IMG/VR virus record: IMGVR_UViG_3300049782_000072
Span: 1-62,642 of that record
Origin: a virus
Lineage: Duplodnaviria > Caudoviricetes
Reading direction: 5' to 3' (one strand)
DNA length: 62,642 nucleotides
The notes below the pieces were generated by a model that saw only the letters and a list, made by a program, of their open reading frames with translations, was not told the DNA's origin and did no database searches. Shown here one piece after another: positions 7,369-61,637 of this stretch. Both the position numbers and the translations under genes were made by a program. Within the stretch, counting starts at the first letter, position 1; each line of letters begins with the position of its first letter.

Positions 7369-7440
7369 GGTGATCTCCTATGGGATGCTGGTGGTTGACC
7401 CCCGCCCGCTGGACCCGGGTGGGGTTCTTGCTGTCCGGCC

Positions 7441-7881
7441 TCAGGCGGTGCGGCCGGGGTCGGTGACGGGCTGGATGTCGAGGGCGTCCCAGAGCGGCCG
7501 GACGTCGATGGGCCCGGTGGCCTGGTCCTCGGGCCCGTCGACCGGGCGCACCATGGGCGGCACGTCGATGCGGTGGGCGTTGGCTTCGGCCGCGAGGTGC
7601 GGGCCGAACCGGGCCTTGAGTGCGAGGGCTTCGTCCCGCCAGTAGTCGCGCTCGGTGGTGAGCTCGTCGAGGGTGGCCTGCTGCTGGACGGCGATCTCCT
7701 GCGCTTCGTCGAGCTGGTGATGGGCGACGGTGAGGTCCCACCGCAGCAGCGCCACCTCGTCGCCCGCCGCGGCGAGGGCCGTCTCTAGCTGCTGCTCGCG
7801 CTCCCGCAGCCGCTCCACCTCGTCGACGGCGCGGCGCCGGCCGTGGCCTTTCAGGGCGGGGATCAGGTCGTTGAGGGTCAC
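7441..7881 (-). CDS. Hypothetical coiled-coil protein
   Basis: GTGA coupling; heptad-rich. Confidence 0.6.
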   Translation of the reverse strand: MTLNDLIPALKGHGRRRAVDEVERLREREQQLETALAAAGDEVALLRWDLTVAHHQLDEAQEIAVQQQATLDELTTERDYWRDEALALKARFGPHLAAEANAHRIDVPPMVRPVDGPEDQATGPIDVRPLWDALDIQPVTDPGRTA

Positions 7882-12362: not shown

Positions 12363-13682
12363 ATGCCTTATGTGGAGGTGCGCGGAGGCAACATTCGCGT
12401 CAAATGGTGGGGCGGCGAGTACCACCTGGACGCCGAAGGCAGAGCCACCCGCCGCAAACGCTACGAGAGCGCCTCCGGCCCAGAGCCTGGCATCCCCTTC
12501 GAAGACGAGGACGAGGCGTACAACTACGGCCTCGACCGGGAACACGAAGTCCGCCACGGTACTCACATCCCCAGGGCCAGCGCCAAGACGCTCATGCGTG
12601 ACTACTGCTGGCTGTGGCTCGACGCCCAAGATCTACGCGAGACATCGATCTCGCGCTACCGCAGCCGGCTCCGCGCCCGCATCGTGCCCTACTGGGGAGA
12701 CCGCGCGGTCGGGGACATCACCACGTGGGAGTACGAAGCCTGGAAGAAGGGCTTGCAGGCCGCCGTCGACCGCAACGAGATGTCCCGGAACTACTTCGAC
12801 CAGCTGGTCGGGCTGTTCGGCATCCTCATGACGGACGCCGTGGTCAAGTACAAGCTGCGCGGCGAGTCCCCCGTCATCCGCCAGCGGCGCCGCGGACGCT
12901 TCACCAAGCAGAAGCGCGAGATCAAGCGGCCCATGCAGATGGAAGTGCTGCACGCCCTGGCATCAAACGCGTACCACGTGTGGGGCTTCACCGGCTGGAC
13001 ATACATCTGGACGCTCGCCTTCACCGGCATGCGGCCCCCCGGGGAGATGTGGGGCTTGCGTCGCGAGTTCTCCTCCCCGACCTGGCCGGCCAGCGACCCG
13101 GACAGGGAGCGGCGCGAGCACGCGCTGGAGCGGTACGGGCCCGACGTGATGCCCGCCATCCGGGTCCAGTACCAGAGCCAGTACGAGGGCGGCAAGCGAT
13201 CTCAGGTGGGCCCGAAGTACGACTCGCACAGGACACTGGTCGTCCCTCGCTTCCTGCACGAGATGCATGCGGCGCTCCTGGCGTCGCACGACTCGCCCTG
13301 GGTTTTCCCTGCCCTCGGGGGAGGCCAGATGGGCACCCAGTGGGGCAAGACCTACTGGCCCTACATTCGGGGCGGGTCTCCCGAGCGGTCCTCCCGCAGC
13401 GATCACCTCCGGCAGGTGATCCACCCGGTGCCGGAGATGGTCGGCAAGCGGATCTACCTTCTCCGTCACGGGCACCGGGAGTGGCTTGAGGAGGACGGCC
13501 ACCCCCGCATCGCGATGGAGACGCGCATGGGGCACGAGGTGGCCGGTGTGGAGGGCCTGTACTCGAACCTCACCCCTGCCATGGAGCGGCGGATCGCCGA
13601 GACCTTGCAGGACCGGTGGGAGACCTTCTGGCGTATGGGGGTCTGGTGGTCTCCCCCGCTTTCCCATTACTCTCCCATCTAG
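12363..13682 (+). CDS. int: Tyrosine integrase
   Basis: FTGMR box I, LLRH...MGH...Y box II, SAM-like core-binding region; adjacent att site. Confidence 0.92.
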   Translation: MPYVEVRGGNIRVKWWGGEYHLDAEGRATRRKRYESASGPEPGIPFEDEDEAYNYGLDREHEVRHGTHIPRASAKTLMRDYCWLWLDAQDLRETSISRYRSRLRARIVPYWGDRAVGDITTWEYEAWKKGLQAAVDRNEMSRNYFDQLVGLFGILMTDAVVKYKLRGESPVIRQRRRGRFTKQKREIKRPMQMEVLHALASNAYHVWGFTGWTYIWTLAFTGMRPPGEMWGLRREFSSPTWPASDPDRERREHALERYGPDVMPAIRVQYQSQYEGGKRSQVGPKYDSHRTLVVPRFLHEMHAALLASHDSPWVFPALGGGQMGTQWGKTYWPYIRGGSPERSSRSDHLRQVIHPVPEMVGKRIYLLRHGHREWLEEDGHPRIAMETRMGHEVAGVEGLYSNLTPAMERRIAETLQDRWETFWRMGVWWSPPLSHYSPI

Positions 13683-18551: not shown

Positions 18552-19379
18552 TCAGCGTTGAGAAAGCAGGCGAGCCGCACGCTCGCGCCGCTGCTGCTCC
18601 TTGCGCTCGGCGCGGGCCCTAGCGGACTGCTGCCGCGCCTTCTCTCGAGCCTCTGGGGAAAGCAGCCGTTGCACGGTGGTCGGGTGCCATTTCCCGCCGC
18701 GCTTGCTGCGGAGCTCCTGCTCGTTGGCGCGGTTGCAGATGGCCCGGATGCTGAGGCCCTCCTCATCACGCCAGCGCTCGAACGTCTCCGCGATCTCGTT
18801 CTCCCGCTCGTCGGCGGTGAGCTCCTTGTCCTCTACGCGCTGCCCGAACCGGGGGGCTCCGTAGGCGTAGCCGCCGCGCTCACCCTTGGCCGCGCGGCCC
18901 TCGGTGAGCCGCTTGATGATGAGCCCGCGGTCGAGCTGGTGGAAGACGCCGCGCATCTGCCGCATGGCCGTGCGCATGGGGTCGGACGCATCGTCCTCCA
19001 GGTGCTCGCCGTGGTCGGCGGTGAACACCCGGCCGCCCAGGGCCCAGACGTAGGAGAGCACGGCTTCCTGCACGGTGAGCTCACGGGCGAGCCGGTCCAG
19101 GTTCGGGGCGAGGATCCCGTCCGCCTTGCCCTCTGCGATCCACTCCACGGCCTCCATGAGTCCGGGGCGCTCGTCGAGCAGTGTCGTGCCTGACTTCCCG
19201 GCCTTGCCGTCCCCGTCCGTGACCATGTGGACGATCCGCACGCGGGTGGTCTGGCCCTTGGCCCACTTCCGGCAGTCGGCTTCCTGGGCGGGGAGGCCGT
19301 AGCCGTCGACTGCCTGGCCGGCGGTGGAGACGCGGCGGACCAACACCAGGCGGAGCGCGGGGATGCGAGGGGTCGTCAT
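18552..19379 (-). CDS. Serine recombinase (resolvase catalytic domain plus short recombinase DNA-binding domain)
   Basis: RVST catalytic motif, SG...RPGL, LDRLAR, G..YG.PRFG, GGKWHPTTV; 275 aa. Confidence 0.9.
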   Translation of the reverse strand: MTTPRIPALRLVLVRRVSTAGQAVDGYGLPAQEADCRKWAKGQTTRVRIVHMVTDGDGKAGKSGTTLLDERPGLMEAVEWIAEGKADGILAPNLDRLARELTVQEAVLSYVWALGGRVFTADHGEHLEDDASDPMRTAMRQMRGVFHQLDRGLIIKRLTEGRAAKGERGGYAYGAPRFGQRVEDKELTADERENEIAETFERWRDEEGLSIRAICNRANEQELRSKRGGKWHPTTVQRLLSPEAREKARQQSARARAERKEQQRRERAARLLSQR

Positions 19380-19393
19380 GGCCACCACTGTAC

Positions 19394-19413
19394 ACATCTA
19401 TGGGCATAGATGT
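19394..19413. promoter_or_regulatory. Putative serine-recombinase crossover/binding site ACATCTATG-GG-CATAGATGT
   Basis: Perfect 9-bp arms around a 2-bp centre, immediately upstream of the recombinase gene. Confidence 0.6.
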
Positions 19414-48571: not shown

Positions 48572-50674
48572 TCACAGGCTGATGTCGTAGCGGTTGAGCA
48601 CCGCCCGGCGGACCGCGGCGAGCGGGTAGACGGACACCTTGCTGCCGTTGACCTCCTGCCGGCGCTTCTCCTCCTCGGTGCGCGGCACGAGCGCGGCCAG
48701 CCGATCGGCGGTCACCGGGTAGCCGGCCGAGCCGAGCCCTTCGGTGACCCGGGCCGCGGGCAGCACGTCGACGCCCTCCGCGTACAGGCCGAACAGGGTG
48801 GCGAGGATCTCGCCGTCCTCGCCGGCGGCACGCAGCCGGTCCATCGGGCCGAGCGGCAGCGTCCCGGCTTCCTGCCGCAGCGCGTAGGCGCGCTGCATGA
48901 TGGCGGCGACCTCGTCGTCGTCGTAGTAGTCGCCACGGACCAGCTCCGGCTCGGCGCCCTCGCCGTCCATGTAGATGCCCACGCCGCGCTGGGACTTGAG
49001 GATGTCCTGCGCGTTGTGGCCGGCGGAGGCGTAGCCCTGGCCGAGGATCGTGTCGGAGGCCTGCGGGGTGAGGCAGCGCATCGCCCAGCGAATGGACAGG
49101 ATGTCGCGGATGCCGGTGGGCACCGAGTCGCTGTCGGGCTTCTGTGTGGCGGCGAGGCTGATGATGCCGAGCGCCCGACCCTGCTGGACGATCAGCCGCA
49201 GCAGCCGTTCCATCTCCTGCCGGGTCTTCTGGTCGGCGGCGGCGCCGTAGGACGACCATTCGTCGACGAGGAGCACCGCCAGGCAGACCCGCGGGTCGAC
49301 GGCCGCCATCGCCTCGGTCAGCTTCCGGGAGCCGTGCTCCTTGGCCAGCGCCCGCCGTTCTTTGATCTCGACGTCCCACATGTGCTGCAGGATGTCGAGG
49401 AGCCTGTCGGGATCGCCGTCGGTGTCGAACATCGCGGCGATCGGCTCGAACGGGGTGATGTCGGCGCCGGCCTTGCCGTCGGCGAGGTACATGCGCACCG
49501 TCGGGTCGAGCGCGGCAGCGAGCAGCAGGTCGTTGGCGGCCGCGGACTTGCCGGAGCCGGGCTCGCCACCGAACAGGCCGGATCGCTCGACCCACGAGGT
49601 GAAGACTTCCTCGCCGCGCAGGTTGACGCCCATCCGGATGGGCTGCCACAGGTTGACCCGCTCGGCGTCGAGCAGCGGGCCCCGGGTGGGCTTGGTGGAG
49701 AACGGTAGCTTCAGCGACACCCGCAGATGGATGGTGTCTTCGCGGTTGCCGCGGGTCTGGTGGACCTGCTGCACGGAGACGCCGAAGCCGTTGGCGATGC
49801 CTTCGCGGGCGCCGAGCGCCTTCTTGGCGGGGATGCCGGACGGCAGTTGGAAGACGACCTGCCAGGCCTTGCCGTCGGCGGTGAGGGTGCAGGGGGTGAT
49901 GAGGCGCAGTTCGTCGTCGGCGGCGATGACGCGGGCGTCGCGGTAGACCCGGTTGACCATGCTGTCGGTCATGCGGTCCCCGTCGCCGATCTTGGCGTCG
50001 CGGTCGGTGTACAGCTCGCCCGCGGTGGTGCGCCGGCCGATCAGCGCGAACGTGGCGAGCGTCGCGGCGGTGGCTGCGAGCCCGCCGGGCGCGCCGAGCA
50101 GCTGCAGTCCGGCGCCCTCGACCCCGGCGATCGGCGCGAGGGCGGCGATGCCGCGCACGGCACGCCGCATGCGGGCTTCGCGCTGCGCCGACCGGTACTT
50201 GCTCATCGCGGACGCCGAGTCCTTGAACGCGTCCTCCATCTCCCGGCGGCGCTTCTCCTTCTCCTTGCCGGGCATGAGCCGCCGGTCGTGCGCCCACTTC
50301 GCGGCCTTGTAGTCGCGCTGCGTCTGCTGCAGCTCATGCCGGGCGGCGGTCACCTGGGCGCCCTCGGTGCCCTGCACCCACAGCGCCACGCGGCGGATGC
50401 CGCGGCCGATCTGGGAGGCGTGCCCGTGCTCGGTGGCCTGCCGGCGCAGCCACTTGCGGAAGCCGCGCACCGTGTTGACCCGACCGACCTGGGCGCGGCT
50501 CTTCCACCCGATGCGGGTCTTCGTCCACGCCGGGGTGAGGGGGGTGTCGCCCATCAGGTCGACGGACGTGGCCGGCTTCTCGACCGCTGCCTCGCCGGGG
50601 CCGTTCAGGTAGCCGCCGACGATGCGCTCCCACTCCGGGTCCGGGCTGCTGCTCGGGGTCGTCTCGATGCTCAC
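48572..50674 (-). CDS. traB: TraB-like FtsK/SpoIIIE conjugative DNA translocase
   Basis: N-terminal TM region, GGEPGSGKS, ADGK, LLVDE, QGRALGI...ATQKP, C-terminal wHTH-sized tail; 700 aa; Spd/Kor-like neighbours. Confidence 0.85.
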   Translation of the reverse strand: MSIETTPSSSPDPEWERIVGGYLNGPGEAAVEKPATSVDLMGDTPLTPAWTKTRIGWKSRAQVGRVNTVRGFRKWLRRQATEHGHASQIGRGIRRVALWVQGTEGAQVTAARHELQQTQRDYKAAKWAHDRRLMPGKEKEKRRREMEDAFKDSASAMSKYRSAQREARMRRAVRGIAALAPIAGVEGAGLQLLGAPGGLAATAATLATFALIGRRTTAGELYTDRDAKIGDGDRMTDSMVNRVYRDARVIAADDELRLITPCTLTADGKAWQVVFQLPSGIPAKKALGAREGIANGFGVSVQQVHQTRGNREDTIHLRVSLKLPFSTKPTRGPLLDAERVNLWQPIRMGVNLRGEEVFTSWVERSGLFGGEPGSGKSAAANDLLLAAALDPTVRMYLADGKAGADITPFEPIAAMFDTDGDPDRLLDILQHMWDVEIKERRALAKEHGSRKLTEAMAAVDPRVCLAVLLVDEWSSYGAAADQKTRQEMERLLRLIVQQGRALGIISLAATQKPDSDSVPTGIRDILSIRWAMRCLTPQASDTILGQGYASAGHNAQDILKSQRGVGIYMDGEGAEPELVRGDYYDDDEVAAIMQRAYALRQEAGTLPLGPMDRLRAAGEDGEILATLFGLYAEGVDVLPAARVTEGLGSAGYPVTADRLAALVPRTEEEKRRQEVNGSKVSVYPLAAVRRAVLNRYDISL

Positions 50675-51918
50675 TGCGACTCCTTCTTCGCGGCGGTCTG
50701 CTTGGCGGTGAGAGAGGCCGCGCGACGAGCGGCCGGGCTGTACTTCACGTCGCCCGTGGTGCGCCGTCCGGGGCGCGCGGGCGGGTTGTAGACGCGGGGC
50801 TTCTTCGCACCGGGCACTTGCGATGCGACCTGCTGTGATGATCGGTTCACGGGGCGCTTCTGCCGGGCGGCTTCGACCCTCGCCTCGGCGGCGTTGCGCA
50901 GTCGGATAATCTCCGCGGACTCGGACGGGTCGGCACCCTCGACGTCGCGGTGCGCGCGCTTCCACACGGCCTCGGTGACGGTCGTCTCGCCGAGTGCCGC
51001 GGCGAGCCGCAGGGCGTGCTGCCACACCTTCGGGAACTCCTTGGCGCGGGCCTGCGCGAGCTTCTCCGCAGCCTCCGCGGCGGCACGCTCGGCGGCCTCC
51101 TTCTCAGCGGCGCGGCGCTTCTCGTCCGCGGCCTTGCGGGCGGCTTCCGCACGCTCGGCCTTGGCCTGCGCCTTGCGCTGCCGCCGCGACAGCTTGCCGT
51201 CCCGCTTGCGGATCTGGCCGTGCTCGTGGAGGTCGTACACGCCGGGGCCGGCGATGGACGCGAACGCGGTACCGATCGCTGTGGCCGGGTCGAAGGCGTG
51301 CAGCCCGTGCCACAGGTTGATGGCGGCAGCGATGAAGGCCAGTACCCAAGCGATGAGCCGGTAGTGCCAGTGCGGCCGGTGGTCGGCGGCTGCGGCCCGG
51401 GCGCCCTTGAGGACGACCCACGCCCCACCTTCGAGCATGATCGGCGCGGCCATCAGCCACAGAGCGTTGGGGTTGTAGAACGCGGCGATCTGCACGGGCA
51501 GGGCGACGATCGAGCAGACGGCGTAGAACCTGAGCGCGTACTGGCGCCACTGCTCCTCGGCGGCAGCGACCTCGGCGGCCTTCGCCGCTTCTGCCTGCTC
51601 CTGCGCGGCGGCCTTCTCATCGGCCTCGCGAGCGGCCCGTTCCTGCTCCTCGCGTTCCCGGTTGAGCTTCGCGATGCGAGCCTCCCGGGCGGCCTGCTCC
51701 TCGCGGGCACGGGCCTCGGCCTTGTCGTTGGCGATCTTCTGCTTGCGGGCTTCCTCCGCGGCCTTGATCTTCTCGGCTTCGGCCTTGCCCTCGGCTTGGA
51801 TGCGGGCGGCTTCGGCTTCGGCGGCGGCGCGGGTCCGGATCGCCTCCGCCTCGGCCAGCGCGACCGGGTCGAAGCCGTGGTCGTGGCCGTTGAGCCTCTC
51901 GATCGACGTGGCGGTCAC
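50671..51918 (-). CDS. Coiled-coil multi-TM protein (SpdB2/DUF2637-like transfer accessory)
   Basis: Coiled coils flanking about four TMs with AAINLWH; GTGA-coupled to traB. Confidence 0.65.
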   Translation of the reverse strand: MTATSIERLNGHDHGFDPVALAEAEAIRTRAAAEAEAARIQAEGKAEAEKIKAAEEARKQKIANDKAEARAREEQAAREARIAKLNREREEQERAAREADEKAAAQEQAEAAKAAEVAAAEEQWRQYALRFYAVCSIVALPVQIAAFYNPNALWLMAAPIMLEGGAWVVLKGARAAAADHRPHWHYRLIAWVLAFIAAAINLWHGLHAFDPATAIGTAFASIAGPGVYDLHEHGQIRKRDGKLSRRQRKAQAKAERAEAARKAADEKRRAAEKEAAERAAAEAAEKLAQARAKEFPKVWQHALRLAAALGETTVTEAVWKRAHRDVEGADPSESAEIIRLRNAAEARVEAARQKRPVNRSSQQVASQVPGAKKPRVYNPPARPGRRTTGDVKYSPAARRAASLTAKQTAAKKESQ

Positions 51919-51939
51919 GGGTATCAGTCCTTCCGGGTC

Positions 51940-52128
51940 TCAGCTGGCGGTGACGCGGGCGCGTCGGTACAGGCGGGTTGATTCGCCTTGGCGGGCGGAC
52001 GGCTGGGGGGTGAGCCCGTTGAACCGGTTCTCGCCGGGGGCGGTGGGCTGCCAGGCCCGGGCGGGCTTGGGGCCGCGGCTGTCGTCGGTGCGGGCGGCGC
52101 CGCCTTCGGTCTCGTTGTGCCAGGCCAT
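51940..52128 (-). CDS. Hypothetical protein (transfer operon)
   Basis: TGATG coupling. Confidence 0.5.
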   Translation of the reverse strand: MAWHNETEGGAARTDDSRGPKPARAWQPTAPGENRFNGLTPQPSARQGESTRLYRRARVTAS

Positions 52129-52325
52129 CAGGCGGCCCTCACCGGGGTCGGACGGTGCTTCAGCCAGGCGGCGACGGCGGCGAGGGCGAGCACGTGGCCC
52201 GGGATCAGGCCGACGATCACGGCGGCACCGGTCGCGGCCATACCGATCGGGGCGGCGGCCGCCGGCCACAAGCCGACGACGATCAGGAAGCTGGTCAACA
52301 GCAGCCAGCGGACGTAACGGGACAT
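52128..52325 (-). CDS. Small hydrophobic Spd-like membrane protein
   Basis: 65 aa, almost entirely hydrophobic. Confidence 0.6.
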   Translation of the reverse strand: MSRYVRWLLLTSFLIVVGLWPAAAAPIGMAATGAAVIVGLIPGHVLALAAVAAWLKHRPTPVRAA

Positions 52326-52366
52326 GGCGACCTCTTCGGGGGTCGGAACGGTTGGGGTGGTCTGGT

Positions 52367-52416
52367 TGGCGCCCCGGGCCGGATTCGATCCGGCAGCATC
52401 ACGCCGGGACCGGGGC
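52367..52416 (-). ncRNA. tRNA-like mini-structure 1 (acceptor stem, T-arm, CCA; no D or anticodon arm)
   Basis: GCCCCGG-N15-GCCGG-ATCGAAT-CCGGC-CCGGGGC-G-CCA. Confidence 0.6.
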
Positions 52417-52422
52417 TGAGGG

Positions 52423-52593
52423 TCAGCTGAGGCGCTCGACCTTGACGTCGAGGTCGCGCGGGTCGGTCTTGGCGGCCTTCACGCGACGATCGAGGTCGGC
52501 CTGGCTGTAGACGGTCACCGAGTCGGTGGAGCCGCCGAGCGGGTTGACCTTCTGGCCGGTGCGGCTGGTGGCGGTGAGCTTGAACTTCGGCAT
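52423..52593 (-). CDS. Hypothetical 56-aa protein
   Basis: GAGGA RBS; MPKFKLTATSRTG... Confidence 0.6.
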   Translation of the reverse strand: MPKFKLTATSRTGQKVNPLGGSTDSVTVYSQADLDRRVKAAKTDPRDLDVKVERLS

Positions 52594-52634
52594 GGGCTAG
52601 TCCTCTCGGGTCGGGTGGAGGATCGGGCTACCGG

Positions 52635-52787
52635 TCAGTCGTCGGATGCGGTGGAGGTGTAGGTGTTGCCGTGCTCGTCGGTGACGGTCTCGCCCGGCTG
52701 CACCGTGAAGGCCGACTCGACGTCCACGCCCTGCTCCTGCGGCGTGACGATCTCCCCGTCGGAGAAGCCGAACACCAGCCCGCCCAT
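52635..52787 (-). CDS. Small acidic protein
   Basis: TGATG coupling. Confidence 0.5.
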   Translation of the reverse strand: MGGLVFGFSDGEIVTPQEQGVDVESAFTVQPGETVTDEHGNTYTSTASDD

Positions 52788-52957
52788 CAGCGGCGGCCCT
52801 TCTTCAGCTCGGACGCGCGGTCGAGGTTCGCGTCCATCGCCTCGCCGTAGGCCCGGGCCAGGTCCGGCCGGCCAGCCGCCTCCATGCGCTTCTGGATCTC
52901 GCGGCACTCGGCGGCGCCCTGCTCGTAGGTCCCGGCCGACTGCTTCTTCTTGAACAC
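52787..52957 (-). CDS. Small hypothetical protein
   Basis: GAAGGA RBS with GTG start. Confidence 0.55.
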   Translation of the reverse strand: MFKKKQSAGTYEQGAAECREIQKRMEAAGRPDLARAYGEAMDANLDRASELKKGRR

Positions 52958-52993
52958 GGTGGTCCTTCCGGATCGGTGAATGTGGGTGGTGCG

Positions 52994-53041
52994 TGCCCCG
53001 GGCCGGATCCGATCCGGCGGCATCGCGCTGGGGGCCGGGGC
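52994..53041 (-). ncRNA. tRNA-like mini-structure 2
   Basis: GCCCCGG-N16-GCCGG-ATCGGAT-CCGGC-CCGGGGC-A; paralog of 52367-52416. Confidence 0.55.
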
Positions 53042-53091
53042 TGGGTGCCGGGCGGGCAGGGGGATGGACCGCCGCCCAGCGGATCAGGGGG

Positions 53092-53334
53092 TCAGGCGGC
53101 GGCCGGGCGGGCGACGTGCAGCGGCAGGCAGTGCGTCCGCCAGTCCTGGTGCACCGGGCACGTGAGCCGCTCCGAGTCCGGCACCGAGTACGCGGTCTCG
53201 CGGTGCAGGGCGCGGGAGAAGTCGTCGCCGAACAGGTCGGCCATCACATCGGCGACCGTGACGCGCTCCCGGCGGCGGGCGGCCAGCGGAGTCGTCGCGG
53301 CGAGATCGGCATCGGACAGAACGAACGGAGACAT
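53092..53334 (-). CDS. Hypothetical protein
   Basis: GAGG RBS; CPVH..W..HC. Confidence 0.55.
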   Translation of the reverse strand: MSPFVLSDADLAATTPLAARRRERVTVADVMADLFGDDFSRALHRETAYSVPDSERLTCPVHQDWRTHCLPLHVARPAAA

Positions 53335-53505
53335 GGCGATCTAGACCTCTCGGGTCAGTAGGGGGTGTGGGTGGGGAGCCGCGGGCGGCGGGAAAGGGGG
53401 CGGTTTCAACCGCCACCCGCGGCGGTCTAGGTGGGCGTCAGCCCTGGGGGTGGGGCCTCGGGGGCCTGATCGGAAGCTCGGGTTTCGTGCGCTCGTGCTC
53501 GGCGC

Positions 53506-53724
53506 TCACGACGCGTCCCGCACCAGGCGCAGACGCGGACCGGGTCCCGGCTGCTGCTGGGGCGCTGCGGTGGCCGGCGTGAACCAGTGGCCCAGACGGC
53601 GCTGCGTCACCGGATCGACGACCGTCACCAGCACCGCCGGCGACTCGCCATCCCACGCCGGCAGCTTCGCGACGATCTCCTGCGCCGCCGACTGCAGCAG
53701 CGCCAGACGCTCCCGCTCCGTCAC
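53506..53724 (-). CDS. Hypothetical protein
   Basis: GTGA coupling. Confidence 0.5.
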   Translation of the reverse strand: MTERERLALLQSAAQEIVAKLPAWDGESPAVLVTVVDPVTQRRLGHWFTPATAAPQQQPGPGPRLRLVRDAS

Positions 53725-53885
53725 GACACGGCCTCCGCCACGATCAGGAACGCGTCGGCGTCCAAGTCCATGACGACCGTGGCCGGAGTACCAGCCGCCG
53801 TCAGCTCGGCGGCCTTCTCCTCCGCCGGCCAGCTGCCGCGCGGATTGCCAGCCGGGATGCGGTCGAGGACCTCGCGGGCGCTCAC
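53721..53885 (-). CDS. Hypothetical protein
   Basis: GTGA coupling; P.GSWPAEE.A. Confidence 0.5.
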   Translation of the reverse strand: MSAREVLDRIPAGNPRGSWPAEEKAAELTAAGTPATVVMDLDADAFLIVAEAVS

Positions 53886-54193
53886 GCCACACCACCGATG
53901 AGGTCCAAGCGGCCGGCGTCGGCGAGGGTGGCGCGGGCCCCGGCGGCAACGTCCTCGGCGTGGGCCAGGCTGTCCGCGTCGAGGTCCGTCATCTCGCCGG
54001 ACGCGGCGACCGCGGACAACTGCGCAGCCCGGGCGGAGGCCACCTCGTAGCGGGTCACTGCCCGGACGATCTCGACGGGGATCGTCAGCGCCAGCTCCAG
54101 CGAGCGGACCGCAGCAACAGCGGCCGACGACAGCGGGGCGGTGCCCGCGTTCTCGGCGCGCTCGGGCGCCGGGGTGATGGTCGTGCTGGTCAT
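53882..54193 (-). CDS. Hypothetical protein
   Basis: GGAGG RBS; coupled. Confidence 0.55.
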   Translation of the reverse strand: MTSTTITPAPERAENAGTAPLSSAAVAAVRSLELALTIPVEIVRAVTRYEVASARAAQLSAVAASGEMTDLDADSLAHAEDVAAGARATLADAGRLDLIGGVA

Positions 54194-54396
54194 CAGGCCA
54201 CCTCCGTGGCGGTCGGGGCGGGCGCGCCCGTCGAATTCAGGACGGACTCAGGGATACGCAGAGCGCCGGTCGCCTTGTCGCCCGGCGTGTAGGGCTGCCC
54301 GTTCCTGTAGGCCGGGAGAAAGCCCTGGTGGATCCAGCGGTAGACGGTCGCGGGGTGCACTCGGAAGTGCGTCGCGACGTCTCGAACTCGCAGCAT
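54193..54396 (-). CDS. Excisionase-like HTH_17 protein leading the transfer operon
   Basis: LRVRDVATHFRVHPATVYRWIHQG.L.A...LRIP. Confidence 0.82.
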   Translation of the reverse strand: MLRVRDVATHFRVHPATVYRWIHQGFLPAYRNGQPYTPGDKATGALRIPESVLNSTGAPAPTATEVA

Positions 54397-54420
54397 TACG
54401 CCTCCGATCGAGTGCTTCGC

Positions 54421-54524
54421 ATCTGTGAGCAACCTTAAAGGTTTGCCGAATAAGGTAGCAAGCCTCGCAGCACAGATTTGGCCAGGGAGTCACCGGTAGG
54501 CGTAAGCATCAAGGGCTTAAGGTT
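54421..54524. promoter_or_regulatory. Divergent kor/tra control region with palindrome AACCTT-A-AAGGTT (54431-54443)
   Basis: AT-rich palindrome, related TAAGGT half-sites, and ATCTGTG/CACAGAT inverted repeat. Confidence 0.5.
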
Positions 54525-54570
54525 GGTGAGGTCAGAAGAGGGATCGCCAGCCGGAGGGGAGGCTCAACAG

Positions 54571-55101
54571 ATGGCCGATATGCAGCGAACACCCGACTCG
54601 CTTGCCTACGTCAAGCCGCGCGGCGCTGGGGAAACAGACGCCTGGAGTGAAGAGACGGGGCAGCGGGGAGGGCAGCGGCTCGCCGAAGTCGCCGAGGTTG
54701 TCCCCCCACGCGAGGTGGCCAGCGCTCTGCGCCTCTCGACCGGCGCGAAGGCAGTCGTGCGGCGGCGCATCATCCTGCTCGACGGCGACGTCATCGAGCT
54801 GGCCGACTCGTACTACCCCCTCTCCGTCGCTCGCGGCACAGCGCTCACTGAGAAGCGAAAGATCAAGGGCGGCGCTCCGACCCTGCTGGCAGAGCTGGGC
54901 TACCGTCCCCGGCACGTCACCGAAGATCTTGAGTTCCGCCCGGCCAACGAGTTCGAGTGCACGACCCTCGCGCTACCAGACGGCGCCAGCGTGCTAACCC
55001 TCCTGCGCACCACATCCACCGAAGACGGGAGCCCCTACGAAGTGCAGCTGATGGTCATGAAGGCGCCTCGCCGCCTCCGCTACGAGATCGAGGTCGACTG
55101 A
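54571..55101 (+). CDS. UTRA-only protein (GntR/HutC effector domain without HTH)
   Basis: EVVPPREVA.ALRL, DSYYP, GG.P.LL.ELGY; paralogous to the C-terminus of the next gene. Confidence 0.8.
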   Translation: MADMQRTPDSLAYVKPRGAGETDAWSEETGQRGGQRLAEVAEVVPPREVASALRLSTGAKAVVRRRIILLDGDVIELADSYYPLSVARGTALTEKRKIKGGAPTLLAELGYRPRHVTEDLEFRPANEFECTTLALPDGASVLTLLRTTSTEDGSPYEVQLMVMKAPRRLRYEIEVD

Positions 55102-55102
55102 C

Positions 55103-55864
55103 ATGCCCGAGCCGCACGAGGACAAGCGCCCGCTCGCTGAGCGGATCGCCGCCGAGATCAGGAAGCTGATCATGTCGGGCGACTGGGAGCCCGGCCAGCA
55201 GGTGCCAACGAACGAGAAGCTCAGAACGCAGTTCAAGACGTCTAACGTCACCATCCAGCGCGCCTTGCAGATCCTCAAGGATGAGAAGTTCCTTGAAGGG
55301 CAGGCGGGTGTGGGCGTCTTCGTTCGTGGTGAACGCGCACAGACGATCCAGCCCGCCCACTACATCGCCCCCTCTGAGCCGGGCCAGCCGTACCGATGGC
55401 TGACCGAGGCCACAAACCGGCAGCAGCGCGGGAAGTACCGCATGCTGGAAGTCGGCGAGGTCGTGCCACCCCGGGAAGTCGCCAAAGCGCTCCGCCTCGA
55501 CGAGGGCAACACGGCGATGCTGCGCTCACGCATCGGCTTCCTCGACGACCAGCCGGCCGAGCTCGTGCACTCCTACTACCCGATCGAGCTGGCGCGCGAT
55601 ACCCGCCTCGCGGATCGACGGCTCATCCCAGGCGGGTCCCCAGCACTCCTGCACGAGATGGGCTACCCGACACGCTCACAGGACGACGCCGTGGCGGCTC
55701 GGCCAGCGACCACCGAGGAGTACGAAGCGCTGGAGATCCCTCGCGACGTACCAGTCATCGAGGTCTTTCGGGTGGTCTACAGCGACGGCCAGAAGCCGAT
55801 CGAGGTCACGCTCCTGACCAAGCCTGCACACCGGTTCAAGATGGGCTATCACATCGAGCTCTGA
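55103..55864 (+). CDS. KorSA/TraR-like GntR-UTRA repressor
   Basis: GntR wHTH plus UTRA; divergent from the traB operon. Confidence 0.87.
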   Translation: MPEPHEDKRPLAERIAAEIRKLIMSGDWEPGQQVPTNEKLRTQFKTSNVTIQRALQILKDEKFLEGQAGVGVFVRGERAQTIQPAHYIAPSEPGQPYRWLTEATNRQQRGKYRMLEVGEVVPPREVAKALRLDEGNTAMLRSRIGFLDDQPAELVHSYYPIELARDTRLADRRLIPGGSPALLHEMGYPTRSQDDAVAARPATTEEYEALEIPRDVPVIEVFRVVYSDGQKPIEVTLLTKPAHRFKMGYHIEL

Positions 55865-55880
55865 CGCGAACCCGAAGTAG

Positions 55881-55905
55881 CCCCCGGTCGTTGACCGGGG
55901 GTTTT
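55881..55905 (+). terminator. Intrinsic terminator
   Basis: CCCCCGGTC/GACCGGGGG followed by TTTT. Confidence 0.7.
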
Positions 55906-56000
55906 CGCGTATCCCGACAGGAGGCTTGATACATGTATGAGTACGGGATACGGTCGATGCCGTGAGAGTGGCCGACGCCACACGCTCAGTTAGGAGTGGC

Positions 56001-60821: not shown

Positions 60822-61637
60822 TCACGCCGTGGCGAAGAGGTCGAGCTGGTCCCCGAGCGGGCGGTTCGCCCACAGGACTTCGATCCGGGACTTGTCCGCC
60901 TTCGCGTTTCCGGTCATCGCTGCTGTCGCATACCGGTGCCAGCCGTCGTACAGCTCGGCGTACAGCGGGCTGTCGTAGCCCGACAGCACGACCGTGGCTC
61001 GGCAGTCGACGAGCGCGGCCGCCAGCTCACGGTGCGCGTCCTCGCCCTTCATCTCGACGCGGTAGTTCGACCACGCCCGGGTCGAGCCGAGGTACGGCGG
61101 GTCGACGTACAGCAGCACCTCGCGGCCGCGCCCGTACTTGCCGATCAGATCCAGGGCGGGCCGGCACTCCAGGCTGACCTCGTGCAGGCGCTCCGCGGCG
61201 GCCGCGAGACGGGTGACGGACGCGTCGAGCCGGTCGGGCATCGACGTGCCGGATCCGCACGGGTCGATGTAGTGCCTCCAGCCGGTGCGGCGCAGCGTGC
61301 CGCCGCGCCCCTGCGTGAGCCGGACCCAGACCCGACGGGCGATCTCCAGATCGTCGCCCGGCTCCTCGGTGAAGGCCGCGGCGTGCTCTGCGTGGGCGTG
61401 CGGGGTCAGCGCGCAAGCTCGGATGAGGTCCTGGGGACGCTCGCGCAGGACCCGCCAGAACGTCATGAGCTGGCCGTCGAGGTCGTTGACGGTCTCCATC
61501 AGCGATGGCGCCTTGGCCAGCAGCACGGAGAGCCCACCGGCGAACGGCTCGACGTAGTGCTCGTGGTCGGGCAGCAGCGAGGCGATCCATGGGGCGATGG
61601 TCTGCTTGCTGCCGAAGTACGGGACGGGGCTTTTCAT
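60822..61637 (-). CDS. DNA N6-adenine methyltransferase (Dam/D12 class)
   Basis: PYFGSK, VEPFAGG, ETVND and YVDPPY motifs. Confidence 0.92.
   Translation of the reverse strand: MKSPVPYFGSKQTIAPWIASLLPDHEHYVEPFAGGLSVLLAKAPSLMETVNDLDGQLMTFWRVLRERPQDLIRACALTPHAHAEHAAAFTEEPGDDLEIARRVWVRLTQGRGGTLRRTGWRHYIDPCGSGTSMPDRLDASVTRLAAAAERLHEVSLECRPALDLIGKYGRGREVLLYVDPPYLGSTRAWSNYRVEMKGEDAHRELAAALVDCRATVVLSGYDSPLYAELYDGWHRYATAAMTGNAKADKSRIEVLWANRPLGDQLDLFATA

Follow-up and report, generated by a model that had tools for sequence, protein, structure and literature searches.

A putative tRNA-derived structured RNA family in the intercistronic gaps of Streptomyces transfer operons

Do two short tRNA-like sequences lying between cistrons of the transfer-gene block of an IMG/VR virus record (IMGVR_UViG_3300049782_000072) belong to a functional RNA, and if they do, which machinery would read them? 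The window examined here is the whole stretch of that record, 62,642 bases in length and about 96% complete in appearance. A preliminary description of the window had noted the two sequences on the minus (gene-sense) strand, with stems of 7 bp and 5 bp and a 7-nt loop, and both were recovered exactly as described. Their relatives in plasmids, viral contigs and genomes indicate a structured RNA family that is missing from Rfam 15 and is well supported as a motif, and the elements are probably punctuation or stability signals in transfer-gene mRNA.

The element and its relatives

The element was modelled as an acceptor-like stem (P1), a mini-hairpin in the linker (P2) and a T-arm-like stem (P3), and was scored with a covariance model (R2) built from a gapless 14-sequence seed. 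In the sense direction copy 1 reads GCCCCGG / TCCC / GGC-GTGAT-GCT / GCCGG-ATCGAAT-CCGGC / CCGGGGC / G / CCA. The parts of the two copies are as follows.

52416-52367, minus strand: element copy 1, R2 score 69.8 bits
52416-52410 with 52377-52371, minus strand: P1 of copy 1, 7 perfect pairs
52409-52395, minus strand: linker of copy 1, with the joining stretch J at 52409-52406
52405-52403 with 52397-52395, minus strand: P2 mini-hairpin of copy 1, 3 bp, loop GTGAT
52394-52390 with 52382-52378, minus strand: P3 of copy 1, 5 bp, loop ATCGAAT at 52389-52383
52370 and 52369-52367, minus strand: tail of copy 1, G73 followed by CCA
53041-52994, minus strand: element copy 2, R2 score 66.1 bits
53041-53035 with 53001-52995, minus strand: P1 of copy 2
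53028-53027 with 53021-53020, minus strand: P2 of copy 2, weak, 2 bp
53018-53014 with 53006-53002, minus strand: P3 of copy 2, loop ATCGGAT
52994, minus strand: tail of copy 2, A73, then CGC

The stems are shared between the copies, and linker, loop and tail differ. Aligned over 53 nt, the copies are a direct repeat with 81% identity and a spacing of 624 nt; a 24-mer common to both occurs twice in the window versus 0 times in 100 dinucleotide shuffles, and the next-best R2 score in the window, with filters off, was 20.3 bits, far under the scores of the two copies. The minimum free energy (MFE) fold of the sense strand of copy 1 gives P1, P2 and the P3 region. Folding-energy z-scores against shuffles were -0.92 and +0.40, which is unexceptional in DNA of 70% GC, and a loose search for the bare shape returned hundreds of chance matches across the GC-rich window. 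Because the bare shape recurs all over the window, the fold alone proves nothing there; the element owes its significance to the repeat and to the family found elsewhere.

By blastn, the 61-nt element was found at 21 places in 16 Streptomyces plasmids, all in unannotated gaps (one of the 16 records carries no annotation at all), and neither the element nor the surrounding 1.6-kb region matched any of 50,697 phage records. An IUPAC pattern of the 3' half located the element in 40 IMG/VR contigs, and a looser pattern located it in at least 120 stretches of GTDB species genomes. Among the matches listed, 76 of 80 genome stretches were titled Streptomyces, with Actinacidiphila, Amycolatopsis, Streptantibioticus and an Actinomycetota metagenome-assembled genome supplying the other four. 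The covariance-model search proposed in the preliminary description recovered the family in plasmids, IMG/VR contigs and Streptomyces genomes, with 62 R2 matches from the window and the loci of plasmids and IMG/VR contigs taken together, and 112 from 80 genome loci. Among 151 Streptomyces species genomes sampled without use of a pattern, 35 matched R2 at E<=1e-3, 24 of them strongly (>=42 bits) and 11 weakly; with about 24 taken as true elements, roughly one in six of the sampled species genomes carries the element. Six weak genome matches were inspected and comprised four tRNA-Arg(CCG) genes (identified by ARAGORN), one partial 3' copy and one member of a sister class described below. Operons hold one to five copies. 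No Rfam 15 family matched the window copies, either at E<=10 within 50000-56000 or at gathering scores over the whole window. Full-text literature searches turned up no description of the element; the IMG/VR structured-RNA catalogue (PMC10690425) might list the motif unnamed.

Strict members of the family (168 distinct sequences) were defined by unpaired features only, namely a loop starting ATC and GYGA in the linker. Within this set 98.9% of stem cells pair, and compensatory changes on both sides of a pair were counted in 10 of 15 pairs (104 cells). Pair P2.2 is C-G in 106 members and G-C in 52, P3.3 is C-G in 157 and G-C in 9, and P3.4 is G-C in 136 and C-G in 28, with three non-pairs and one G.U. 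Of the 12 cases in P1 with an A on the 3' strand, 10 have the matching U on the 5' strand, which no pattern constrained, a change from C-G to U-A, and two are C.A mismatches. An alignment of 112 rows gave 98.0% paired cells and both-side changes in 10 of 15 pairs, which 0 of 500 shuffles reached; when the 3' partner was slid by one column, pairing fell to 55-63% (51-63% over both alignments). A sample not chosen by pattern gave 98.8% pairing, 8 of 15 pairs changed on both sides and 0 of 500 shuffles, counts inflated by five tRNA-Arg-derived rows (four genes and one partial copy) and two sister-class rows; the recount on the 168 strict members was made because such rows had inflated the earlier count. 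G.U cells numbered 73 versus 22 A.C cells, chiefly at the closing pair of P2. The covariation in these alignments supports all three helices. It indicates that the element is an RNA structure under selection, as had been suggested from the identical stems of the two copies: the compensatory changes in 10 of 15 pairs and the shuffles, none of which reached the observed value, are what bear that suggestion out.

Two further groups of sequences were observed beside the main class. A sister class of about 44-47 nt, scoring below about 36 bits with R2, was seen in locus L090 (2664-2710 and 3034-3080) and also in L070, L079, L062, L102, L107, L119 and L053. It is made up of a GCCCCGA 5' strand, a linker of about 10 nt, a CCGGG-TTCGACT-CCCGG T arm and CCGGGGC-R-C, with stems of 6+6 bp, the canonical loop TTCGACT and the T-arm motif GGTTCGACTCC, and it often shares operons with the main class. 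Longer variants (L103 4796-4873, L093 6158-6230 and 6493-6565, L018 6361-6431, L077 564-639 and others) carry an extra hairpin between P1 and the GYGAN mini-hairpin, which gives a four-way, cloverleaf-like outline.

Placement within transfer operons

The two window copies had been placed on the transcribed strand, between cistrons of a TraB-containing operon, and this placement was confirmed by co-orientation, by gap measurements and by the matches of the translocase gene to PF01580 and phrog_1358. By a GC-phase test, which is crude and mislabelled at least one annotated case, upstream flanks were co-oriented with the element in 108 cases, opposed in 12 and without a call in 54, and downstream flanks were co-oriented in 134, opposed in 9 and without a call in 31. 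In annotated plasmid loci, 8 of 8 elements lay on the strand of the flanking coding sequences and between small coding sequences of the tra/spd region. The plasmid loci inspected include pFP11 and pCQ3, and several adjoin TraA/TraB, FtsK/SpoIIIE or DUF2637 genes and lie downstream of GntR-type regulators. The element starts 5-15 nt past a stop codon in 62 of the 105 cases for which an upstream open reading frame (ORF) was found, and it ends 30-50 nt ahead of a start preceded by a Shine-Dalgarno sequence in 92 of 160. In the window, the gap from the preceding stop codon is 6 nt for copy 1 and 50 nt for copy 2, and the gap to the following start codon is 45 nt for copy 1 and 37 nt for copy 2. 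A TraB-like gene was present within the fetched DNA in at least 38 of 106 loci of at least 6 kb. Judged from these flanks, the element is strand-specific and occupies a fixed intercistronic position in tra/spd operons. The flanking proteins are very diverse: the 92 upstream ORFs fall into 52 clusters and the 155 downstream ORFs into 70, which fits a general intercistronic module and not the leader of one gene family.

The features around the two copies, and the recombination genes of the window, are listed below (GC3, GC fraction at third codon positions).

53378..53423, minus strand: unrelated intercistronic hairpin of high stability, MFE -35.3 kcal/mol, z -5.0, equalled by 0 of 200 shuffles
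53092..53334, minus strand: 80-residue ORF upstream of copy 2, GC3 0.91, stop 50 nt ahead of copy 2
52787..52957, minus strand: first tiny ORF, 56 residues, GC3 0.96, start 37 nt past copy 2
52635..52787, minus strand: second tiny ORF, about 50 residues, GC3 0.96, start overlapping the preceding stop (TGATG)
52423..52593, minus strand: third tiny ORF, 56 residues, GC3 0.95, stop 6 nt ahead of copy 1
52128..52325, minus strand: 65-residue hydrophobic ORF, GC3 0.92, start 45 nt past copy 1
50671..51918, minus strand: 415-residue ORF between the small ORFs and TraB, GC3 0.89, no Pfam match
48572..51025, minus strand: TraB-like FtsK/SpoIIIE DNA translocase, PF01580 E 2.9e-8, phrog_1358 E 2.7e-118
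12363-13682, plus strand: weak tyrosine-integrase-like ORF
18552-19397, minus strand: serine recombinase
54193-54432, minus strand: excisionase-like HTH_17 protein

The block of small ORFs on the minus strand ends in the 415-residue ORF and the TraB-like translocase, and the label of transfer operon given to it earlier is reasonable. The translocase coordinates are those of the longest ORF, and the real start probably lies further downstream. All three tiny ORFs that the preliminary description had bracketed between the copies look real (GC3 0.95-0.96). Relatives of the 415-residue ORF were found by tblastn in 26 of 152 element loci, where they adjoin the element; the 65-residue ORF has a weak DUF7472 match (E 0.004, under the cut-off), and the 80-residue ORF has no Pfam or PHROG match. 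The hairpin at 53378..53423 follows a stop by 14 nt and precedes a start by about 43 nt, in a gap equivalent to those of the elements, and scores only 20.2 bits with R2, outside the family.

Between 51800 and 56300 no sigma-70-like promoter and no terminator-like site (GC-rich hairpin followed by a U tract) was detected. The 10 nt past the element stem are C/A-rich, and identity as an intrinsic (Rho-independent) terminator was ruled out since no U tract follows the stem. At 55863-55907 on the plus strand a hairpin is followed by UUUUC; it has a faint rdlD-like Rfam match (E 9) and looks like a terminator facing the minus-strand operon.

Elsewhere in the window, profile matches and the ORF list gave an SPP1-type portal, a capsid protein, an ORF of 1,508 residues that is of tape-measure size, and a Prim-Pol. 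With a TraB translocase, recombination genes and a full phage structural set, the record looks like a mixture of the phage-plasmid or actinomycete integrative and conjugative element (AICE) kind. The carrier of the two copies is a Streptomyces phage-plasmid-like element. GATC is over-represented in the window (411 sites versus 170 expected from base composition and 284 from dinucleotides), the window encodes a D12-class (Dam-like) adenine methyltransferase (60822-61637), and the element loops contain GATC; a link between the loops and the methyltransferase was dropped because GATC is frequent throughout the window. In the portion of PMC9239103 that is available, the Gbn site is given as GATC followed by A/T and then T, which the GATCGA of the element loops does not fit, and the Gbn site was rejected as an explanation of the loop. 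In another locus, L093, which holds three copies of the element, a gntR-DTE RNA (RF02989) was matched at 7424-7581 on the minus strand with 99 bits against a gathering score of 63.6, so that a second catalogued non-coding motif lives in transfer regions; the window has no such match.

tRNA likeness, proposed role and rival explanations

At roughly 46-50 nt, the element resembles a tRNA with its middle deleted: the acceptor-like stem has 7 bp, the hairpin with loop GYGAN is a vestige of 2-3 bp, and the T-arm-like stem has 5 bp and a 7-nt loop. All 168 strict members show the 7+5-bp geometry in which the two 3' strands adjoin with zero nt between them, and abutting stems of 7 and 5 bp make up the 12-bp coaxial stack of tRNA type. 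The loop consensus is [A/T]TCRANT (among 171 members, ATCGAAT in 65, ATCGACT in 40, ATCGGAT in 33 and TTCGACT in 11), in which the T-loop positions U55, C56 and R57 are kept. Past the stem, a purine occupies position 73 in 167 of 171 members and C occupies position 74 in 169; both positions lay outside all search patterns.

The likeness extends to one particular tRNA. R2 cross-detects Streptomyces tRNA-Arg(CCG) genes at 34-37 bits, and local alignment of the element with tRNA-Arg(CCG), spanning anticodon stem to trailer, scores 32-39 versus 14 +/- 2.3 (maximum 26) for shuffles. The acceptor stems are one flipped pair apart, and the host tRNA-Arg gene, which has no encoded CCA, reads A-CTC, the commonest element tail. 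We infer that the family descends from a tRNA-Arg(CCG) gene minus positions of about 8-30. At L202 1497-1549 a partial tRNA-Arg(CCG), running from the anticodon stem to the 3' end plus trailer and preceded by unrelated sequence, looks like an att-site remnant, and suggests that mobile elements integrate into the tRNA-Arg(CCG) gene in Streptomyces.

The role that we favour, tentatively and as a call that comes close to even and tilts slightly towards no, is that of a tRNA-derived element read in cis by the host tRNA-end machinery within polycistronic tra/spd mRNA. The element would be transcribed as part of such an mRNA from Streptomyces conjugative plasmids, integrated elements and plasmid-phages. 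A cut by RNase P ahead of G+1 would give the upstream cistron a short 3' tail; a second cut past R73, by RNase Z or another nuclease, would give the next cistron a leader of 30-50 nt. Substrates that lack CCA are those of RNase Z. Cuts 5-15 nt past one cistron and 30-50 nt before the next would give each cistron independent, structure-protected ends and a different stability, by which the small spread genes and the toxic TraB translocase could be held at different levels, and a mini-tRNA-like RNA may be released as a by-product. We infer that the element is read as RNA and seen by tRNA-end machinery; cleavage by RNase P or RNase Z, or a role as a decoy, would be plausible.

Several observations weigh against this role or against the strength of the evidence for it. 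The claim of tRNA-like identity held for the acceptor/T-arm half, which is the part that is resembled, and failed with the tools that recognise tRNAs: ARAGORN found 0 tRNA or tmRNA genes in the window and none at the elements in 48 loci, and the Rfam tRNA, tmRNA and mascRNA models did not accept the window copies. (A tmRNA tRNA-like domain was rejected on the same results, the ARAGORN tmRNA search giving 0 and Rfam no tmRNA match.) Most members (about 93%) have A at position 54, where 12 of 171 have T, and about a quarter, copy 2 among them, have G at position 58 (loops ATCGGAT and ATCAGAT); given these deviations a canonical T-loop fold is uncertain. The CCA tail that had been taken as a feature of copy 1 is encoded in only 17 of 171 members (10%) and gives way, as a family feature, to R73 and C74. 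The MFE fold extends the inner hairpin to 7 bp with a triloop in place of the 7-nt T-loop. The stem sequence is kept beyond the needs of pairing, GCCCCGG being present in about 95%, which could reflect recognition by a sequence-specific protein or recent spread. As to the pair counts, the alignments were fitted to the model, many rows were gathered by patterns that fix parts of P3 and limit the 3' strand of P1 to purines, and cells count sequences and not independent events. Of the 24 sequencing runs in which the locus is wholly or partly present, not one is recorded as RNA. Finally, the unrelated hairpin at 53378..53423 fills an equivalent gap, which means that a generic stable structure may suffice.

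That hairpin is the reason why a plain intercistronic stabiliser or insulator stays a strong rival, even if we regard it as rather unlikely. Such a hairpin would block exonucleases, 3'-to-5' or 5'-to-3', or would uncouple translation; the tRNA likeness would be a legacy and the tRNA enzymes uninvolved. Covariation, co-orientation and position fit it equally, the hairpin of z -5.0 lies in the same operon, and the triloop fold, the breaches of T-loop rules at A54 and G58 and the unconserved CCA are all as it would have them. A stabiliser, however, needs no invariant gapless 7+5-bp geometry, no [A/T]TCRANT loop, no GYGAN mini-hairpin and no R73-C74, and the high sequence conservation in more than 100 species, beside diverse genes, suggests that specific features are recognised. 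A different RNA-level account takes the released mini-tRNA of about 47 nt as the functional product, a sponge or substrate acting in trans on acceptor-end enzymes (the CCA-adding enzyme, tRNA-targeting toxins, defence nucleases of the recipient) and so protecting the incoming element. It would explain the conserved acceptor/T-arm mimicry with R73-C74, the multiple copies per operon and the carriage by mobile elements that must establish in new hosts; because the distances to the neighbouring stop and start codons are fixed, a role in cis is indicated, and we hold the decoy to be very unlikely.

The element could also act as DNA. As a recombination site or linker it would mark a module boundary, serve homologous exchange across 50 bp of identity, or be the folded or cruciform attC-like site of an integrase that targets tRNA genes. 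Of the pairs drawn from 192 non-duplicate elements, 208 have the upstream flank in common, 578 the downstream flank and only 45 both. When the same 151 elements were compared at every point, 26 of 485 similar pairs (5.4%) were alike on both sides at the element, a share that came to 11-16% at control points shifted by +/-350-500 nt and to 45% at +700 nt. One-sided similarity extends right up to the element and includes both window copies, copy 2 sharing only its downstream flank with L028 (89%) and copy 1 only its downstream flank with L025, L020, L016 and L014. pCQ3 (L004 2507-2595) and a related S. albidoflavus plasmid (L006 2503-2740) differ by one spacer-plus-element unit of about 135 nt, with homology resuming exactly at the element tail. 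The window encodes an integrase-like protein and a serine recombinase, and the element resembles the part of tRNA-Arg that att sites carry, of which L202 holds a partial copy. Yet the mosaic excess is modest, two- to three-fold, because the whole region is mosaic, and it is likely a side effect of homologous recombination, which any conserved 50-bp repeat would draw. Compensatory changes 35 nt apart over an asymmetric linker, and G.U in excess of A.C, fit a single-strand fold better than a duplex site, and Streptomyces conjugation moves double-stranded DNA according to the available text of PMC3583192. Taken together these points leave a recombination site decidedly unlikely. Still less probable, to a high degree, are clt/TRS sites (TRS, TraB recognition sequence) bound by TraB, or another duplex protein operator of the transfer system. 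The elements do lie about 1.4-2 kb upstream of traB and contain GC-rich inverted repeats, and an octamer in some linkers is one base off what we take to be the TraB recognition repeat of pSVH1. That octamer is not conserved, however, and covariation and strand bias are unexpected of a duplex operator. The element is moreover near-identical across plasmids with different flanking genes, whereas clt is plasmid-specific in the part of PMC3583192 that is accessible, and the sps palindrome CGTCACGTGACG reported in the available portion of PMC4170104 is a different sequence. Scarcely any credence is given to the disfavoured account in which the elements are decayed tRNA att remnants or functionless chance GC-rich palindromes, although they are similar to the 3' part of tRNA-Arg(CCG) that is typically duplicated at att sites and their folding z-scores are unremarkable. 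Both acceptor-like strands are present and covary, hundreds of copies keep position and orientation in operons of many species, no host tRNA with the 3' strand of the element was found in four complete genomes checked (one candidate proved to be coding sequence), and a search of the window allowing up to 3 mismatches gave no 3' copy of tRNA-Arg. The preliminary description had itself named decayed att remnants as one outcome that would overturn its reading; they were discarded because the 5' strand is present and covaries with its partner, multiple copies lie inside operons, and the window lacks a tRNA-Arg 3' copy.

A bolder version of the favoured role, which we think unlikely, joins several of these strands: an internally deleted tRNA-Arg gene would have been domesticated as a portable punctuation cassette cut by RNase P and RNase Z, so that the ends and stability of every small cistron would be set by it, and serving also as a crossover point for module swaps, with the released mini-tRNAs as possible decoys for host enzymes that target acceptor ends. 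If true, this would be a bacterial tRNA-punctuation system doubling as a recombination linker, akin to mitochondrial tRNA punctuation. Processing as proposed in the favoured role would by itself give a bacterial counterpart of organelle tRNA punctuation and of mascRNA-type processing, carried by mobile elements of the main antibiotic-producing genus, and would explain how tiny, fast-evolving spread genes and a toxic DNA translocase in long operons come to be expressed differently. A host-processed insulator of 50 nt would be a useful part for building operons in Streptomyces. Independent of mechanism, a structured RNA family is added, together with a compact marker for tra/spd modules in genomes and in 'viral' contigs, and the ties of the family to tRNA-Arg and to mosaic junctions are relevant to the question of how tRNA genes, integration sites and the exchange of modules are connected in actinomycete mobile elements.

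Comparison with known systems

Processing of mascRNA involves cuts by both RNase P and RNase Z. Like the family described here, mascRNA (MEN-beta tRNA-like, RF01684) is a small tRNA-like module within or at the end of a longer transcript; it differs in being eukaryotic, in its sequence and in its fuller cloverleaf. The Rfam mascRNA-menRNA model, whose gathering score is 42.5 bits, had no match in the window; its matches to sister elements in L070 and L090 were faint and far under that score, at 22.6 and 22.2 bits (E 3.8-4.9). In E. coli, RNase P can cut operon mRNA between cistrons, and an acceptor stem stacked on a T stem-loop suffices for recognition. The E. coli sites do not form one recognisable sequence family, whereas the element is a single conserved module in hundreds of operons. 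With tRNA-Arg(CCG) the element shares the T arm, the GCCGTG of the variable region, the discriminator A and the CTC trailer, and it differs in lacking the D arm and most of the anticodon arm, in having A54 and in lying inside protein-coding operons.

At the DNA level, what is conserved among attC sites is structure and not sequence, and IntI recombines them in the form of folded single-stranded DNA. The element is like attC in being a structured, strand-specific imperfect palindrome that follows the stop codons of diverse co-oriented small genes at the boundaries of exchangeable modules; in contrast to attC, its sequence is highly conserved and tRNA-like, and its mosaic signal is modest. Among the motifs of Streptomyces conjugative plasmids, sps is a 12-bp duplex palindrome (CGTCACGTGACG) bound by SpdA, as given in the accessible part of PMC4170104, and clt sites are plasmid-specific arrays of 5-9-bp direct repeats next to tra, bound by TraB/TraA, as given in that of PMC3583192. 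So far as those texts describe them, sps and clt/TRS resemble the element as conserved or repeated non-coding motifs near spd/tra genes, and differ from it in sequence, size, copy pattern and covariation. Identity with sps was rejected on the difference in sequence, and identity with clt repeats on an element length of about 50 nt, two dispersed copies and near-identity across unrelated plasmids.

The nearest documented precedent would be the t-elements, tRNA-like structures at the ends of plant mitochondrial mRNAs that are thought to direct cuts by RNase P and RNase Z (Forner et al. 2007, PMC1920247; the available portion of the article is the basis for what is said of them here). In common with the family, they have a non-canonical tRNA-like fold with an acceptor stem and a T-arm motif, within a longer transcript and beside protein-coding genes. 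T-elements are organellar and cloverleaf-like, whereas the family occurs on bacterial mobile elements and is without D and anticodon arms. T-elements keep GGTTCRANYCC, from which the window copies depart in reading GGATCGAATCC and GGATCGGATCC (T54 to A); the motif in the form GGTTCGACTCC is present only in the sister class of other loci. The ends of t-elements have been mapped and some t-elements accumulate as small RNAs (PMC1920247), whereas the family is described here from its sequences. By this analogy the element would be of a known kind, the tRNA-like cis elements of mRNAs, and what appears to be new is this particular motif, for which a mechanism is here proposed.

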